Assembly (NCBI GenBank): GCA_965248355.1
Contig: OZ252098.1
Location: 3,520,001 to 3,584,000, forward strand
Direction of reading: 5' to 3'
Origin: Candidatus Latescibacterota bacterium
Lineage (GTDB): Bacteria; Latescibacterota; UBA2968; UBA8231
Length of the DNA stretch: 64,000 nucleotides
Numbering within the stretch: the first letter of the stretch is position 1; every line of letters begins with the position of its first letter. The translations under genes were made by a program, and so were the position numbers. The notes below the pieces were generated by a model. The model made no database searches and was not told the origin of the DNA. It worked only from the letters and a program-made list of their open reading frames with translations. Positions 11,635 to 17,383 of the stretch are shown one piece after another.

Positions 11635-13185
11635 CTACAGCACCTTGCTGATCAGGCGCAACTCGAGGCCCTCGAAGCCCAACACCTCGTAGCAGCTGCC
11701 CCCGGTGCAGGCCAGCCCCGTCCTCCGCCGGCCCGCAAAGGCGTCCAGCGTGTGGGCCTCGCGGAACCTCCAGCTGGCGCCGAGAGCCCCCCAGTACGTC
11801 GCCCCCGACTCCGAGGCCCCGGCCTCCAGGGGGTCGTTGGACCTCTGCAGCTGCAGCGACCACGTCCACGCCGGATAGCGGCTGACCTCCACGATGGCCA
11901 GCAGGTTCTCGTGGGGGAACTCACTCCGGCCGAAGCGCCGGTCCACGTCCTGCAACTGCAGGTCGGCGCTGACGGCGTGGCGCCCGCCGGCGGACCACTC
12001 CCAGCGCGTGCCGGCGGTCAGGCGCCGCTCGTTCTCGAGGATGCGGTTGCGCGTATAGTCGAGGAACAGCTGTCCGTGGAGGACCTCGCCCACCGGGGAA
12101 TCCAATTGCAGGAAGTACTCCCGCAGCGACTTCTCCTCGCCGGGGCGCGAACCCCGGCGGGTGGCCAGGTTCCAGGCGGCGATCAGCCCGACCTGGCGGG
12201 GCAGGGCCCAGGTGAGCTCGGCCTGGACCCCGGTCTCGTCGTCGGCCAGCAGGGCGTGGGTCTCCCGGTTGAGCAGGAAGGCCTCGTGCTCCCGGATCAG
12301 GGTGGGCGGGTTGTTGATGCTCGCAAAGGCGAAGTCGTGGTAGTCCTTCCGTTCCAGGCTCAGCCCCCAGTCCCCGCCCGTCAGGGTGGCGGCCAGGTAG
12401 AGGGCCCGCGGGCGCTTGCTGTCCAGGGAGAACCAGCGGCCCGGGGCGGGATCGAGCTGGGCGTACTCGCCGTAGAGATCGCCGTACCAGCCACCCAGTC
12501 CGAGCCCTTCCAGGAGCGACCCGAAACGGAACTCCCCATGGGTGGTGGCGGCCAGCTCCTCGCGCCCGTCGAAGGAGAACTCCATCAGCGCCGCCCCGAT
12601 CTCGATGTCGCGGCTCAGGCGGGCGCCGACGGCCCCGCCGGAAACGCGGCCCCGGCGCCGTTCCAGACCCTTCAGCCCGGGGGCCAGCTCGCTGTTCACG
12701 GGGGTGCCGCGCAGCCACAGCACGTCCACCTTCCCCCGCCGGGCGCGCACCTCCACGCCATCAAGGTCGCGCACGATCTGGTAGCGGCGGCGGGCGACGC
12801 GGTCCTCGGTGACGACGCCCGGAAGCTCGAAGGCGTGCAGGAGGAGTCCGCGGCCCACCAGGGTGTAGAAGTGTCCGGCCGTCGCCTCGAGGCCGCCGTG
12901 CCGGTAGGAGAGGGATCGCTGCGCGAGGTGAGCGTAGTCCCGGCCGTCTCCGCTGGAGCGGAAGGCCTCGCTTCGGGCGCTGGCCAGGAATCCCGAGGAC
13001 TCGAAACCGAGGTTCACCTGCTGGTACACGGCCCGCAGATCGGCCGGCTCCGCGTCGGGAAGGTTGCCGAGCTGGTATTCGTGGTGGGCCGTGAGCCGCA
13101 CCTGGCCGTGGAGGGGGCCGGCCGCCAGCAGGGCGGCCGCCAACAGGGCGAGGAGCCCAGGGCTGGCGCGACAAGGAAGGGTCAT
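11635..13185 (-). CDS. DUF6029-like outer-membrane beta-barrel protein with C-terminal CxxxxC
   Basis: Signal peptide; GHFYTLVGRGLLL; INNPPTLIREH; alternating beta-strand pattern; C-terminal GRRRTGLACTGGSCYEVLGFEGLEL. Confidence 0.75.
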   Translation of the reverse strand: MTLPCRASPGLLALLAAALLAAGPLHGQVRLTAHHEYQLGNLPDAEPADLRAVYQQVNLGFESSGFLASARSEAFRSSGDGRDYAHLAQRSLSYRHGGLEATAGHFYTLVGRGLLLHAFELPGVVTEDRVARRRYQIVRDLDGVEVRARRGKVDVLWLRGTPVNSELAPGLKGLERRRGRVSGGAVGARLSRDIEIGAALMEFSFDGREELAATTHGEFRFGSLLEGLGLGGWYGDLYGEYAQLDPAPGRWFSLDSKRPRALYLAATLTGGDWGLSLERKDYHDFAFASINNPPTLIREHEAFLLNRETHALLADDETGVQAELTWALPRQVGLIAAWNLATRRGSRPGEEKSLREYFLQLDSPVGEVLHGQLFLDYTRNRILENERRLTAGTRWEWSAGGRHAVSADLQLQDVDRRFGRSEFPHENLLAIVEVSRYPAWTWSLQLQRSNDPLEAGASESGATYWGALGASWRFREAHTLDAFAGRRRTGLACTGGSCYEVLGFEGLELRLISKVL

Positions 13186-13267: not shown

Positions 13268-14974
13268 TCAGGTCCGCGTCCCTTCCATGAGAATCCGCGC
13301 CACCTCCGGCCTGGTGAACTCCATGGGCGGGACCTGTCCCTTGGCCAGCATGTCGCGCACCTGTGTGCCGCTCAGATTCACGCGTTCCTCCGCGCCGTGC
13401 GGGCAGGTCTTCATGGAGGCCATGCCCTCGCAGCGCTTGCAGAAGAAGGAATGATCGAAGAACAGCGGGGTGATGCCCAGGTCGGCCGGGGGCAGGCTCC
13501 GCAGCAGGTCCTGCGCCTCATAGGTTCCGTAGTAGGACCCGACACCGGCGTGATCCCGTCCGACGATGAAGTGCGTGCAGCCGTAGTTCTTGCGGACGAG
13601 GGCGTGGAACACGGCCTCGCGCGGTCCCGCGTAGCGCATCGCCGCAGGCAGGACCGACAGATGCACACGGTCGGACGGGTAGTAGCCCTCCAGGAGGGCC
13701 CCATAGCAGCGCATCCGGATGTCGGCGGGGATGTCGTCCGGCTTGGTCTCTCCCACAAGGGGGTGCAACAGCAGCCCGTCGACGATCTCCAGGGCCGCCT
13801 TCTGGATGTACTCATGGGCGCGGTGGACGGGATTGCGGGTCTGAAACCCGACGATCGTCCGCCAGCCTCGCTCGGCGAAAGCGGCGCGCGTCTCGGCCGG
13901 GTCCTGCCGGTGGGACAGCAGAGCCGCCTCGAGGTCCTCGCGCTCGATGGCGGTGACCGCTCCGCCGATCAGCGCGTCATGCTGCCGGTAGACGGAGGCC
14001 ACGCCGGGGTGCGCTTCCTCCTGGGTGCCGAAGACGCTCTGCGCCTCGACCCTCTTGTCGTACGGATAGACCTCGTCAACCGTGATGACGCCGACGAGGC
14101 GGCCGGCGGGGTCGTGCAGGGCGGCTTCGTCGCCCCTTTCGAGTCCCGAGGCCGCTTCCCAGGGCGCGGACAAGGTGATCGGCAGGCTCCACAAGGTGCC
14201 GTTCGCGAGCCGCATCTCGCGCACCGTGCGCTCATAGTCGCCCCGGCTCATGAAGCCGGCCAGCGGGCTCATCGCCCCGACGGCGATGAGGTCGAGGTCA
14301 GCGGACTCGCGGGGAGAAAGCCCGAGGCGGGGCAGGGCCGAGGCCCGGGCGCGAATCTCCTGCGCCTCCTCCGGCGAGGCCAGTCGGTGGATGAGAGCGC
14401 CCCCGTGGGGCGCGATGGCCGTCATGGTGGCCGTGCCCTGTGGCGCGAATCCCCTCTCCTTCAGCGCGGACAGGACCTTGCCGAGGCTCTCCTCGATGGT
14501 CTCCTCCTCCGTGTTGACCAGGACCTCAGGGCTTGGCGGCGCCTCATACGGGTCCGAGACACCGGTGAAATTGGGAATCTCGCCCTTGAGCGCCTTCTCA
14601 TACAGGCCCTTCACGTCGCGCCGCACCAGCTCATCGAGCGAGGCGTGGACATGAACCTCGATGAAGCGGCCGATCTCCCGCCGCACCTCGTCGCGCACTT
14701 CGCGGTACGGCGAGATGGCCGAGACGATGCTGACCACGCCGTTGCGCGTGAGGAGGTTGCTGACGAATCCGATGCGCCGGATGTTGGTGTCGCGATCCTC
14801 CTTGCTGAAGCCGAGTCCCTTGCTGAGGTTCGTGCGGACCACGTCGCCGTCGAGCAGCTCGCAGTTGATACCCCGCTCCCCGAGGACCGCGAGCAACCGC
14901 TCCGCGATAGTGCTCTTGCCCGCGCCCGAAAGGCCGGTAAACCAGACCGTCACTCCCTGCGGATCTGTCGTCAC
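13268..14974 (-). CDS. cysC-sat: Bifunctional adenylyl-sulfate kinase (N-terminal CysC) / sulfate adenylyltransferase (C-terminal Sat)
   Basis: [32 protein letters not shown] (CysC); [36 protein letters not shown] (Sat). Confidence 0.95.
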
Positions 14975-15004: not shown

Positions 15005-15772
15005 CTATGGTGTGGCGATGCCGGCGCCGTTTCCGGGCGGGATCGCAGTCCTCGAGATGTGGATGCCGCACTCCACCTTGTCCCCGAAATCGGACCAGCG
15101 GCCGGCTCTGCGGTCCTCGCCGGGCCGGACGGCGCGGGTGCAGTGGGTGCAGCCGATGCTGGGATACCCGCGGTCGTGCAGGTCGTTGTAGGGCACGTCG
15201 TTCTCGCGAATGCAATCCCAGATGTCCTCCTCCGTCCAAGTCGCCAGGGGGTTGATCTTGACGAGGTTGAACTTGATGTCCCATGCGACGATGGCGACAT
15301 CCTTGCGCCTGGTGCCCTGATCACGGCGCAAGCCGGCCATCCAGGCGTGCTGCCCGGCGAGGGCCTCCTCGCTGGGCCCGACCTTGCGGATCTCGCAGCA
15401 GAGATCGGGGTCGACCTTCCAGAGTTCCGGGCCGTGCCGTGCCGCCTGTCGCTCGACGGAAACGTCCGCCTTGAAGGCCATGGGACGGATTCCGTAGCGG
15501 CGCGCGGCCCGGTCCTTGAGGGCGTGTGTCTCCGGGAAGAGAAAGCCCGTATCGACGTAGAAGACGGAGACGGCGGGATTGATCTCCATGGCCATGTCGA
15601 GCAGGACCATGCCGGAGACACCGCCAAAGCTGCAGGCGAGCGTGATGTCCGGGAAGAAGGTCTCCAGGGCCCAGCGCACGATCTCCCGCGGGTGGGCGTC
15701 CTCCAGCTCGGCTCTGACCTGTCCAAGCCTCTCCTCGGTCCATTCCGTCCTCAGCGCTCCAATGTCCGCCAT
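15005..15772 (-). CDS. cysH: Adenylyl-sulfate (APS) reductase, CysH family, [4Fe-4S] type
   Basis: DTGFLFPET, LCCEIRKV, GYPSIGCTHCT, RAGRW, ECGIH. The CC + CxxC pattern indicates the Fe-S APS-reductase type. RBS GGAGGG upstream of ATG 15772. Confidence 0.92.
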   Translation of the reverse strand: MADIGALRTEWTEERLGQVRAELEDAHPREIVRWALETFFPDITLACSFGGVSGMVLLDMAMEINPAVSVFYVDTGFLFPETHALKDRAARRYGIRPMAFKADVSVERQAARHGPELWKVDPDLCCEIRKVGPSEEALAGQHAWMAGLRRDQGTRRKDVAIVAWDIKFNLVKINPLATWTEEDIWDCIRENDVPYNDLHDRGYPSIGCTHCTRAVRPGEDRRAGRWSDFGDKVECGIHISRTAIPPGNGAGIATP

Positions 15773-15803
15773 GTCTTCCGCTCTCCCTCCGTATCTGGCT
15801 GGC

Positions 15804-15843
15804 AAGAAAAAACCCGCCCCCCTTGGCTGTCGGGGGGCGGGTT
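15804..15843 (-). terminator. Intrinsic terminator (attenuator) upstream of cysH
   Basis: Minus strand AACCCGCCCCCC-gacagccaa-GGGGGGCGGGTT-TTTTCTT: 12-bp stem plus U tract, ending about 30 nt before the cysH ATG. Confidence 0.85.
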
Positions 15844-15900
15844 CGTGCGCTTCTTCCTGGTTGATCAGGCGTGCCGCGCCGCTGTGTCAGTGAGGCCGGC

Positions 15901-16020
15901 TTACGTCGCTCGTCCGGCCTCCCGCCCCTGGATGGGCGTACAACAACACGAGCAGGTCACCGCGGCGCGGGGCGCCAGGGCAATCGCTGAGCAGTCAGGT
16001 ATGTGGAATTGCGCGTTCAT
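15901..16020 (-). CDS. Cysteine-rich leader peptide, 39 aa: MNAQFHIPDCSAIALAPRAAVTCSCCCTPIQGREAGRAT
   Basis: ATG to TAA ORF with TGC-TCG-TGT-TGT-TGT run, lying between a sigma70-like promoter and a terminator ahead of the cys genes. Confidence 0.8.
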   Translation of the reverse strand: MNAQFHIPDCSAIALAPRAAVTCSCCCTPIQGREAGRAT

Positions 16021-16043
16021 CGTCTCACGATCCGCTTCAACGC

Positions 16044-16071
16044 AAAATAGGCGACCGGCCTATGCTGTCAA
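16044..16071 (-). promoter_or_regulatory. Sigma70-like promoter of the cys leader, with overlapping inverted repeat
   Basis: TTGACA-16 nt-TATTTT on minus strand; ATAGGC-N5-GCCTAT at 16047-16063. Confidence 0.65.
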
Positions 16072-16252
16072 TGCGTCGACGCTGGCCGCGCCCTCACCGC
16101 CCAGCTCGCTGCCGAAGAGGGCCTGCCTTGAGCAACCGCCTGCTGCGCCAGGCGCGCCGAATCCTCCTGCCAGGTGCCCTCGCTCCAACGACGGCCAGCC
16201 TGCACTGGTGCGCGCCCCCTGAATCCCTCCGGCAAGGCAGCATGACCCTGTC

Positions 16253-17383
16253 ATGTTTGCCCTGATCTTCCTGGCCCTGCTGGGCTCCGTCCATGCCTAT
16301 TCGGGCTGGCGGCTCATCCCCCATCTTCCTCCCCCGGCTCACTTCGGTGCCGCATCGGTGTTGGTGCTCCTCCTGTTGCTGCCCCTGTTGCTCTTCCGCC
16401 TGCGGTCCCGTCCACATCTGGCCTGGCTCACGGATCCCCTTGCCTGGGTGGCCTATCTGGGCATGGGTCTCTTCACCGTCTGCTCGACTCTGCTGGTCCT
16501 GCGCGACGTGGGAGCCCTGCTCTGGGGCCTGGTCCATCCTGTCGGCGCGGGGCTCGACGCCCGCCTCGACCTGGTCACCTTTGTCCTGGCCCTGGTGGTA
16601 ACGGGCTATGGCTGTTACCAGGCCCGACGCACGCCGGTGGTCCGCCGGGTCGAGATCCCTATTGCGGATCTCCCGCCCGCATTGGTGGGGCTGCGCATCG
16701 TGCAGATCAGCGATCTCCACGTGGGCCCCACCATCAAGGCCCCTTTTGTGGAGCGCGTTGTCACCCGCGTCAACGAACTGCGGCCCGACCTGATCGCCTT
16801 CACCGGCGATCTCGCCGACGGCGCCGTCGAACGACTCGCCCCTCATACGGCCCCCCTGGCCCAACTCACCGCTCCCCTCGGGATCTATTTCTGTACCGGC
16901 AACCACGAATACTACTCGGGCGTGGAGAGCTGGACCGAACAGGCCCGCCGACTCGGATTCGATGTCCTGATCAACGAAGCACGCCACATCGACTGCGGGG
17001 ACGGGCGCATCGCCTTGGCCGGCGCCACCGACTTCAGCGCCGGCGAGCTGGTCCCCGGCCACGCTTCCGATCCGGCCAAGGCCCTTGCCGGGAGCGACGG
17101 CGCCCACGTGCGAATCCTGCTCGCCCACCAGCCGCGCAGCATAGAGGCGGCCGCCACCGCCGGTTGCCACCTGCAACTGTCGGGGCACACCCACGGCGGC
17201 CAGTTCGTGCCGTGGAAGTACACCATCCTTCTGCAACAGCCCTATATCGCGGGACTGCACAAGGTTCGCGGCACCTGGATCTACGTCCACCGGGGCACCG
17301 GCTACTGGGGGCCCCCGCTGCGGCTCGGCGCCCCTTCCGAAATCGCGCTCCTCACCCTGAGCCGGGCGCCGCCGACCGGTTAA
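16253..17383 (+). CDS. Membrane-anchored metallophosphoesterase (YkuE-like)
   Basis: N-terminal TM helices; SDLHVG, TGDLAD, GNHEYY, LAHQP, SGHTHGGQ. Confidence 0.92.
   Translation: MFALIFLALLGSVHAYSGWRLIPHLPPPAHFGAASVLVLLLLLPLLLFRLRSRPHLAWLTDPLAWVAYLGMGLFTVCSTLLVLRDVGALLWGLVHPVGAGLDARLDLVTFVLALVVTGYGCYQARRTPVVRRVEIPIADLPPALVGLRIVQISDLHVGPTIKAPFVERVVTRVNELRPDLIAFTGDLADGAVERLAPHTAPLAQLTAPLGIYFCTGNHEYYSGVESWTEQARRLGFDVLINEARHIDCGDGRIALAGATDFSAGELVPGHASDPAKALAGSDGAHVRILLAHQPRSIEAAATAGCHLQLSGHTHGGQFVPWKYTILLQQPYIAGLHKVRGTWIYVHRGTGYWGPPLRLGAPSEIALLTLSRAPPTG

Follow-up and report, generated by a model that had tools for sequence, protein, structure and literature searches.

A probable cysteine-sensing transcription attenuator upstream of the cysH-cysC-sat operon in two bacterial phyla

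Introduction

The control of sulfate assimilation is usually ascribed to transcription factors or riboswitches. The classical leader-peptide attenuators are trpL, hisL, leuL, thrL and pheL of E. coli, and comparative work on attenuation has reportedly come from the Lyubetsky group. Attenuation at leuL is summarised in the accessible text of PMC5314783. For cysteine, leader peptides were first predicted in Actinobacteria and, according to the available part of PMC1262725, without terminators. The mycobacterial examples, polycysteine leaderless sORFs termed the 'Cys ribulon', are the ones for which attenuation through Cys codons was shown experimentally, at the level of translation; as the accessible part of the report describes, stalling at consecutive Cys codons relieves the repression of cysteine-pathway genes and two Cys codons suffice (10.1101/834739). 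A terminator-type element, uORFC-8-2, is described in the available text of PMC8632094 as a prediction that occurs exclusively upstream of cysS, in Rhodobacterales (Alphaproteobacteria).

Here we analyze a leader within the window, by which we mean the whole stretch of 64,000 nucleotides. We conclude that it is very probably a classical ribosome-mediated transcription attenuator which senses charged tRNA-Cys and controls cysH-cysC-sat. Like the E. coli attenuators it consists of a promoter, a short ORF with cognate codons that overlap the protector, an antiterminator and a terminator in front of pathway genes. In contrast to them, the amino acid sensed here would be cysteine, the genes under its control serve sulfate activation and reduction, and the protector is a predicted three-way junction with an additional hairpin at the stop codon. 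As far as the published descriptions can be compared, the leader shares with uORFC-8-2 a uORF, tandem Cys codons within a stem, a terminator with U tract and the proposed ribosome-mediated attenuation, whereas uORFC-8-2 has two Cys at positions 14-15 and the present element precedes cysH-cysC-sat in two other phyla (PMC8632094, available text). The logic of Cys codons joining a repressing duplex is also found in the Cys ribulon. In the dissected mycobacterial case, however, the duplex hides a Shine-Dalgarno site, whereas the cysH Shine-Dalgarno site in the window lies 3' of the terminator; moreover, the accessible text describes the mycobacterial leaders as leaderless, without conserved terminators and present at several loci (10.1101/834739), in contrast to the leaders described here, most of which have a short 5' UTR and which combine an intrinsic terminator with a single locus per genome. 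The initial annotation had placed Cys-rich leaders mainly in Actinobacteria. This holds for the mycobacterial cases (10.1101/834739), but a terminator-type element has also been predicted before cysS in Rhodobacterales, as far as the available text of PMC8632094 shows.

Results

All elements of the leader are located on the minus strand. A sigma70-type promoter, TTGACA-16-TATTTT, lies at 16044..16071 (TTGACA at 16071-16066, TATTTT at 16049-16044); it is the one promoter-like site between 15400 and 16600, where shuffled sequences contained a mean of 0.0. It is followed by a leader ORF of 39 codons, MNAQFHIPDCSAIALAPRAAVTCSCCCTPIQGREAGRAT (15901..16020; ATG at 16020, TAA at 15903-15901), with a ribosome-binding site that scores -7.0 compared with -10.4 for cysH. 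Folding predicts a small hairpin within the ORF, 5' of the Cys codons (15964..15976), which is retained in Dehalococcoidia although the encoded residues shift from RR to LS. The sensor codons C-S-C-C-C, TGC TCG TGT TGT TGT (15940..15954), double as the 5' strand of a predicted helix P1 with its 3' strand at 15872..15885 (duplex -18.9 kcal/mol); the fifth Cys of this leader is codon 10. Hairpin P2 (15923..15938; -8.4 kcal/mol) pairs CGCCC at 15938-15934 with GGGCG at 15927-15923. The antiterminator strand GGGGCGGG (15921..15928) is complementary to CCCGCCCC at 15841-15834 in the 5' arm of the terminator. The stop codon is enclosed by hairpin P3 (15892..15921; -18.2 kcal/mol), formed by GAGGCCGG at 15921-15914 and CCGGCCTC at 15899-15892, which is a candidate pause hairpin. 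The intrinsic terminator (15804..15843), recognized by sequence and fold, comprises a 12-bp hairpin at 15843-15811 and a U tract; the hairpin reaches -27.4 kcal/mol, counting two A-U pairs contributed by the U tract, and six U follow. A standard terminator scan with a loop limit of 8 omitted this hairpin because its loop has 9 nt. Promoter, 39-codon leader, Cys run, pairing strands, stop hairpin and terminator, all of which the initial annotation had claimed, were each found again at these positions.

The same annotation had called three TGT codons in a row unusual. The run is present within 15954-15940, but it is not rare by itself, since the genome contains 43 such runs. TGT accounts for 443 of 3673 Cys codons when a heuristic set of long ORFs of the host genome is counted. 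Four Cys within five codons were found in only 40 of 28,543 short ATG frames of the host genome, and only 3 of the 61 strong terminators in our own scan have a perfect upstream complement of the 5' arm of at least 8 nt within 130 nt. In the window these features coincide, stand in front of cysH and are conserved. Rfam covariance models gave at best 19.8 bits with the leader, and no family, T-box and SAM riboswitches included, reached its gathering score; the Rfam leaders show no sequence match, and the best of them, Thr_leader, scored 14 bits where its cut-off is 55. No T-box was found in the host genome.

The gene behind the terminator had been claimed to be cysH, and this identity is backed by matches above cut-off to NCBIfam NF002537 and TIGR00434 (APS/PAPS reductase, 15005..15772, minus strand). 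Its strong ribosome-binding site at 15790-15783 is located 3' of the terminator and outside it, and the distance between the U tract and cysH is only about 30 nt. The last gene of the operon encodes, according to domain matches, a fusion of APS kinase and ATP sulfurylase of 568 aa (cysC-sat, 13268..14974, minus strand). Most proteins in its 90% cluster likewise have APS kinase fused N-terminal to ATP sulfurylase, and cysC and sat are separate genes in the congeners G002, G006 and G007 and in Dehalococcoidia. The operon is extended by sulfite reductase in Dehalococcoidia, whereas it ends after sat in the window and in three checked congeners; the sulfite reductase-like gene of the host genome is located elsewhere and has no such leader. 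Directly after the sulfate operon the window contains a gene (11635-13185, minus strand) for a protein of 516 aa, which starts like a signal peptide and matches no NCBIfam family.

A homologous leader precedes cysH-cysC-sat at 24 further loci, 4 in congeners and 20 in Dehalococcoidia, which gives 25 with the window; these loci are kin and not independent samples. Among 60 relatives, four congeners have a CysH 73-75% identical to that of the window, and the leader is present in 4/4, with Cys runs of 7, 6 and 6 codons and CCRC. A scan of species genomes yielded 24 loci, 19 of them in Dehalococcoidia (Chloroflexota) with 74-81% CysH identity to the window, and the homologous leader was found in all 19; the likeness is plain, as in ALARRAAVTCSCYMPVPGREAAR versus ALAPRAAVTCSCCCTPIQGREAGRAT. 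G233, counted among the 20 Dehalococcoidia, carries an additional, more divergent leader. Since the search of the host phylum covered 168 genomes and the class Dehalococcoidia alone has more than 350, the two groups belong to different phyla. All 25 loci have an open frame of 27-39 codons starting with ATG, a similar promoter, the GGGCG strand, the stop hairpin and a CCGCC(CC)/GGCGG terminator with U tract. The Cys run spans 2 to 7 codons with mixed codon usage (31 TGC and 38 TGT), and 17 of the 20 leaders from Dehalococcoidia contain two Cys only. The stop codon varies between TAG, TAA and TGA, the N-terminus is not conserved and the rest of the peptide is poorly conserved. In many Dehalococcoidia the leader's ribosome-binding site is weak (-0.5 to -4.8 kcal/mol). 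The ATG lies 23-25 nt past the -10 box in 21/25; the leader of G002 alone is near-leaderless, with 9 nt. A Met codon follows the Cys run in 21 of the 25 leaders (L037-L055, L198, L004), possibly as an added sensing of methionine or as a constraint of helix P2.

The comparison of cysH upstream regions among relatives, which the initial annotation had suggested, therefore showed a Cys leader kept at 25 loci of two phyla; the stems, which it expected to covary, are near-invariant and show little covariation. Two-sided changes were seen in one of 18 pairs, a proportion as high in 243 of 500 shuffles. A strand that binds two partners covaries with difficulty, but the helices then have support from their invariance only. 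In 16 aligned sequences 95.5% of cells in the antiterminator pairing are paired, and the 4-bp core of P2 is kept in 14 and lost in G233. For P3, 99% of cells are paired and one pair shows a two-sided change. G233 retains CCGCCCC, of which the terminator pairs only five bases and the antiterminator all seven, in this one case. Junction and loop bases vary freely across the leaders. P1 was not recovered in the RNAalifold consensus, because the alignment does not register it.

The distance from the last Cys codon to the GGG codon of the antiterminator strand is 12 nt at 6 and 15 nt at 19 of the 25 loci. A distance of 12-15 nt is roughly the reach of the ribosome beyond its A site, or one footprint. 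This constant gap, whatever the length of the Cys run, is the strongest point for the mechanism. For folding with a model ribosome we used the transcript up to just past the 5' arm of the terminator and held unpaired 18 nt upstream and 12 nt downstream of the A-site codon. The antiterminator formed (P>0.5) in 25/25 leaders with the ribosome on the first Cys, in 25/25 on the last Cys and in 2/25 at the stop. In a codon walk, one or two codons past the last Cys sufficed for it to drop to about zero, a fall that is partly due to the construction of the model. The outcome depends on the footprint chosen: with 15 nt the last Cys fails in 7/25, including the window, and with 9 nt the stop position of the window gives 0.95. 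When the completed hairpin was included at equilibrium, the terminator of the window won despite the stalled ribosome (P=1.0), so that read-through requires kinetic precedence of an antiterminator that forms first and lasts. Terminators are shorter in most Dehalococcoidia, and there the terminator is disfavoured at equilibrium as well once the ribosome stalls at the first Cys (P<0.5 in 17/20). Without ribosome, 18 of the 25 homologues have an unfinished transcript in which the antiterminator is favoured, with 0.03 in the window; the protector is thus not uniformly dominant. In nearly all members the Cys codons close a junction when the full leader folds without ribosome, and the terminator follows.

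This three-way junction is closed by P1, the 3' segment of which is the region after the stop hairpin. In the window one of 300 shuffles gave a P1 as good; across 17 distinct pairs the shuffle fraction was at most 0.02 in 9 and 0.03-0.13 in 8. In the host genus each P1 strand pairs best, or nearly so, with its cognate partner, which does not hold for 6 of 12 distinct types from Dehalococcoidia. The CGCCC/GGGCG pairing proposed initially as the protector does exist as a hairpin; it is probably one arm of the larger junction closed by the Cys codons. The complementarity of GGGGCGGG, the proposed antiterminator, to CCCGCCCC was confirmed, the strand is kept at 25 loci, and folding of the alternative structures with the model ribosome yields the proposed switch.

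According to the attenuator model, a ribosome would clear the Cys codons when cysteine is plentiful and would cover GGGGCGGG while the 5' arm of the terminator is synthesized. After release of the ribosome the RNA would fold into the three-way junction and the terminator, and transcription would end near 15805. When cysteine is short, the ribosome would stall at a Cys codon and melt P1 and P2. GGGGCGGG would then be left free just past the leading edge and could capture CCCGCCCC before the 3' arm exists. With the antiterminator formed, the polymerase would continue into cysH.

The host genome contains further candidate attenuators. At G000:C1:4475939-4476095 (plus strand) a Trp-rich leader, MTDNRTDNPRRWWWRFWSYETGQGCVHP, and a 13-bp terminator precede a trpE-like gene, as in a candidate classical Trp attenuator. 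At G000:C1:1516630-1516815 (plus strand) a uORF that is near-leaderless and has one Tyr codon, MESPAPTTVTDRRYRRSGAIRTGGTER, and a terminator precede a tyrS-like gene; 9 nt of this leader are complementary to the arm of the terminator, and the start of the uORF resembles that of the Cys leader of G002 (MIATPAPTT...). Given these candidates before trpE and tyrS, the machinery of the host fits attenuation.

The element appears specific to this type of cysH. A covariance model, R1, was built from the leader loci, and only 20-23 candidates per genome were scored with it. Strong matches occurred only at known cysH loci, in 8/151 Dehalococcoidia and 5/132 genomes of the host class, with a single match in the host genome; six weak matches (23-30 bits) were rejected as terminators without a Cys leader. 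An exact pattern search in 76 genomes of the order returned the 5 known loci and one chance match within a gene. A pattern scan of metagenomes gave at least 118 stretches; among the matches listed none has a terminator 3' arm with U tract downstream, and the pattern was too loose to speak on distribution. A triple-Cys pattern was likewise uninformative, with 184-804 matches in each of five genomes. In the host genome the 600 nt upstream of each of 12 PALP-family genes, of the sulfite reductase-like gene and of two cysS genes contained no comparable leader, so that neither cysS carries a Cys leader; both cysS genes score above the family cut-off (G000:C1:1118585-1120009 and 3941366-3942724).

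No such leader was found at 22 host-class loci with other types of cysH, although 3 of these tell nothing, cysH being internal there, and the survey took L023 on the incorrect strand and passed over L028 and L029. The same was true for 20 native cysH loci of the host family (heuristic scan, 2 of them short), for 10 more distant cysH loci of Dehalococcoidia, only 5 of which show the operon start, and for 2 cysH loci of Acidimicrobiales. Several cysH genes that lack the leader (L006, L013, L030, L200, L202, L205 and L206) carry just upstream, at the promoter, a box that is rich in AT and roughly palindromic. This suggests a repressor site, perhaps Rrf2/CymR-like; attenuator and operator seem to be alternatives at cysH genes.

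The CysH type of the window occurs in only 5 of the 168 genomes of the host phylum, and other CysH proteins of this phylum are at most 48% identical to it. In a quick tree of 81 CysH rows the five proteins of the host genus group together (SH-aLRT 95) inside the leader-bearing branch of Dehalococcoidia (98), apart from the other CysH of the host phylum. The idea of two separate acquisitions within the host genus found no support, because the five fall into a single group. In other assemblies, contigs of equal length again carry CysH next to host genes, which argues against a chimera. In the simplest reading, drawn from the sequences, the leader and the three genes were probably acquired together from Dehalococcoidia.

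RNA contigs were available from seven metatranscriptome runs of two studies; these runs had been chosen with this region, and the contigs lack strand, true ends and level. Contigs confined to the leader are present in six of the seven, ending at about 15835-15857: 15835-16023, 15846-16013, 15847-16008, 15857-16013, 15848-16040 and, in run X8, about 15842-16025 as read from the distances in the difference table. Run X7 has no leader contig. Four other runs contain all sampled words of 15300-16300. The leader-only contigs are a weak hint at a short terminated transcript. That cysH is uncovered in X3, X4 and X6, and that the leader contig of X8 has a depth of 70.5 compared with 3-5 on the cysH/cysC contigs, is not counted as evidence, because contig depth cannot rank parts and the runs were chosen with this region. 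A strain variant in X1 and X8 carries a 3-nt deletion in the Cys run, with one Cys codon fewer and the frame kept; it breaks one pair of P3.

Discussion

The initial reading as an attenuator of the trp/his type is backed by the leader conserved at 25 loci, the fixed gap and the folding with a model ribosome. The conserved multi-helix fold with near-invariant bases and the weak ribosome-binding sites of many leaders would also suit an RNA switch that binds a ligand or protein, with a riboswitch-like three-way junction acting on the same terminator and the Cys codons as a by-product of P1. We regard such a switch as very unlikely: all 25 leaders keep an open ATG frame, TGC and TGT interchange, the run of 2 to 7 Cys is lengthened or shortened by entire codons, the bases of junction and loops are free to vary and no Rfam gathering score is reached. 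About equally improbable is that the ORF is an independent small gene, whose product would be a Cys-rich peptide that binds metal or thiols, with a constitutive terminator of its own, cysH being reached by leak-through or from another promoter. Any short transcript would fit the leader-only contigs, and the terminator of the window is strong (-27.4 kcal/mol), but neither the length of 27-39 codons nor the N-terminus nor the number of Cys is conserved, and those residues that are conserved coincide with paired RNA. Moreover, no second promoter-like site was found between 15400 and 16600, the gap to cysH is only about 30 nt, and a peptide gene leaves the conserved complement of the antiterminator unexplained.

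A ribosome-mediated attenuator could also respond to a broader signal, such as a shortage of Met or Ser, a general slow-down of translation or an arrest by the nascent peptide. The Met codon after the Cys run in 21/25 leaders points in this direction, as does the finding that a modelled stall in the codons just 5' of the run likewise frees the antiterminator. However, Met is absent from this position in the window and three congeners, the four congeners carry Arg or Cys in place of Ser, and Cys is the sole residue common to all leaders; in addition, the modelled permissive range shuts at the last Cys or one codon past it, which in Dehalococcoidia is before the Met. We therefore consider this explanation the least probable of the alternatives and retain the attenuator that senses charged tRNA-Cys.

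The mechanism of this attenuator is classical, and a textbook mechanism limits the surprise, but for this operon, and in these lineages, the arrangement seems not to have been described before. A search that was thin on subscription literature turned up no report of a Cys attenuator with a terminator in front of cysH, and the accessible portions of PMC13236596, PMC2965389, PMC11109978, PMC8079986 and PMC5314783 contain nothing on such an arrangement at cysH. Likewise, the searchable papers gave no experimental demonstration of a trp-style cysteine switch with the full anatomy of terminator and antiterminator. The leader is compact (about 270 nt) and free of host factors, and the relatives provide a natural series of 2, 3, 4, 6 and 7 Cys codons; it therefore lends itself to direct tests with a reporter and might be used for sensing cysteine. 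Taken together, the locus offers a clear case of a cis-regulatory RNA that apparently crossed phyla together with its operon. On balance we favour the view that a self-contained, ribosome-operated cysteine switch, in which the Cys codons close the junction protector, moved with its genes, stayed functional in the new host and was retuned there, the Cys run having grown from two to up to seven codons.
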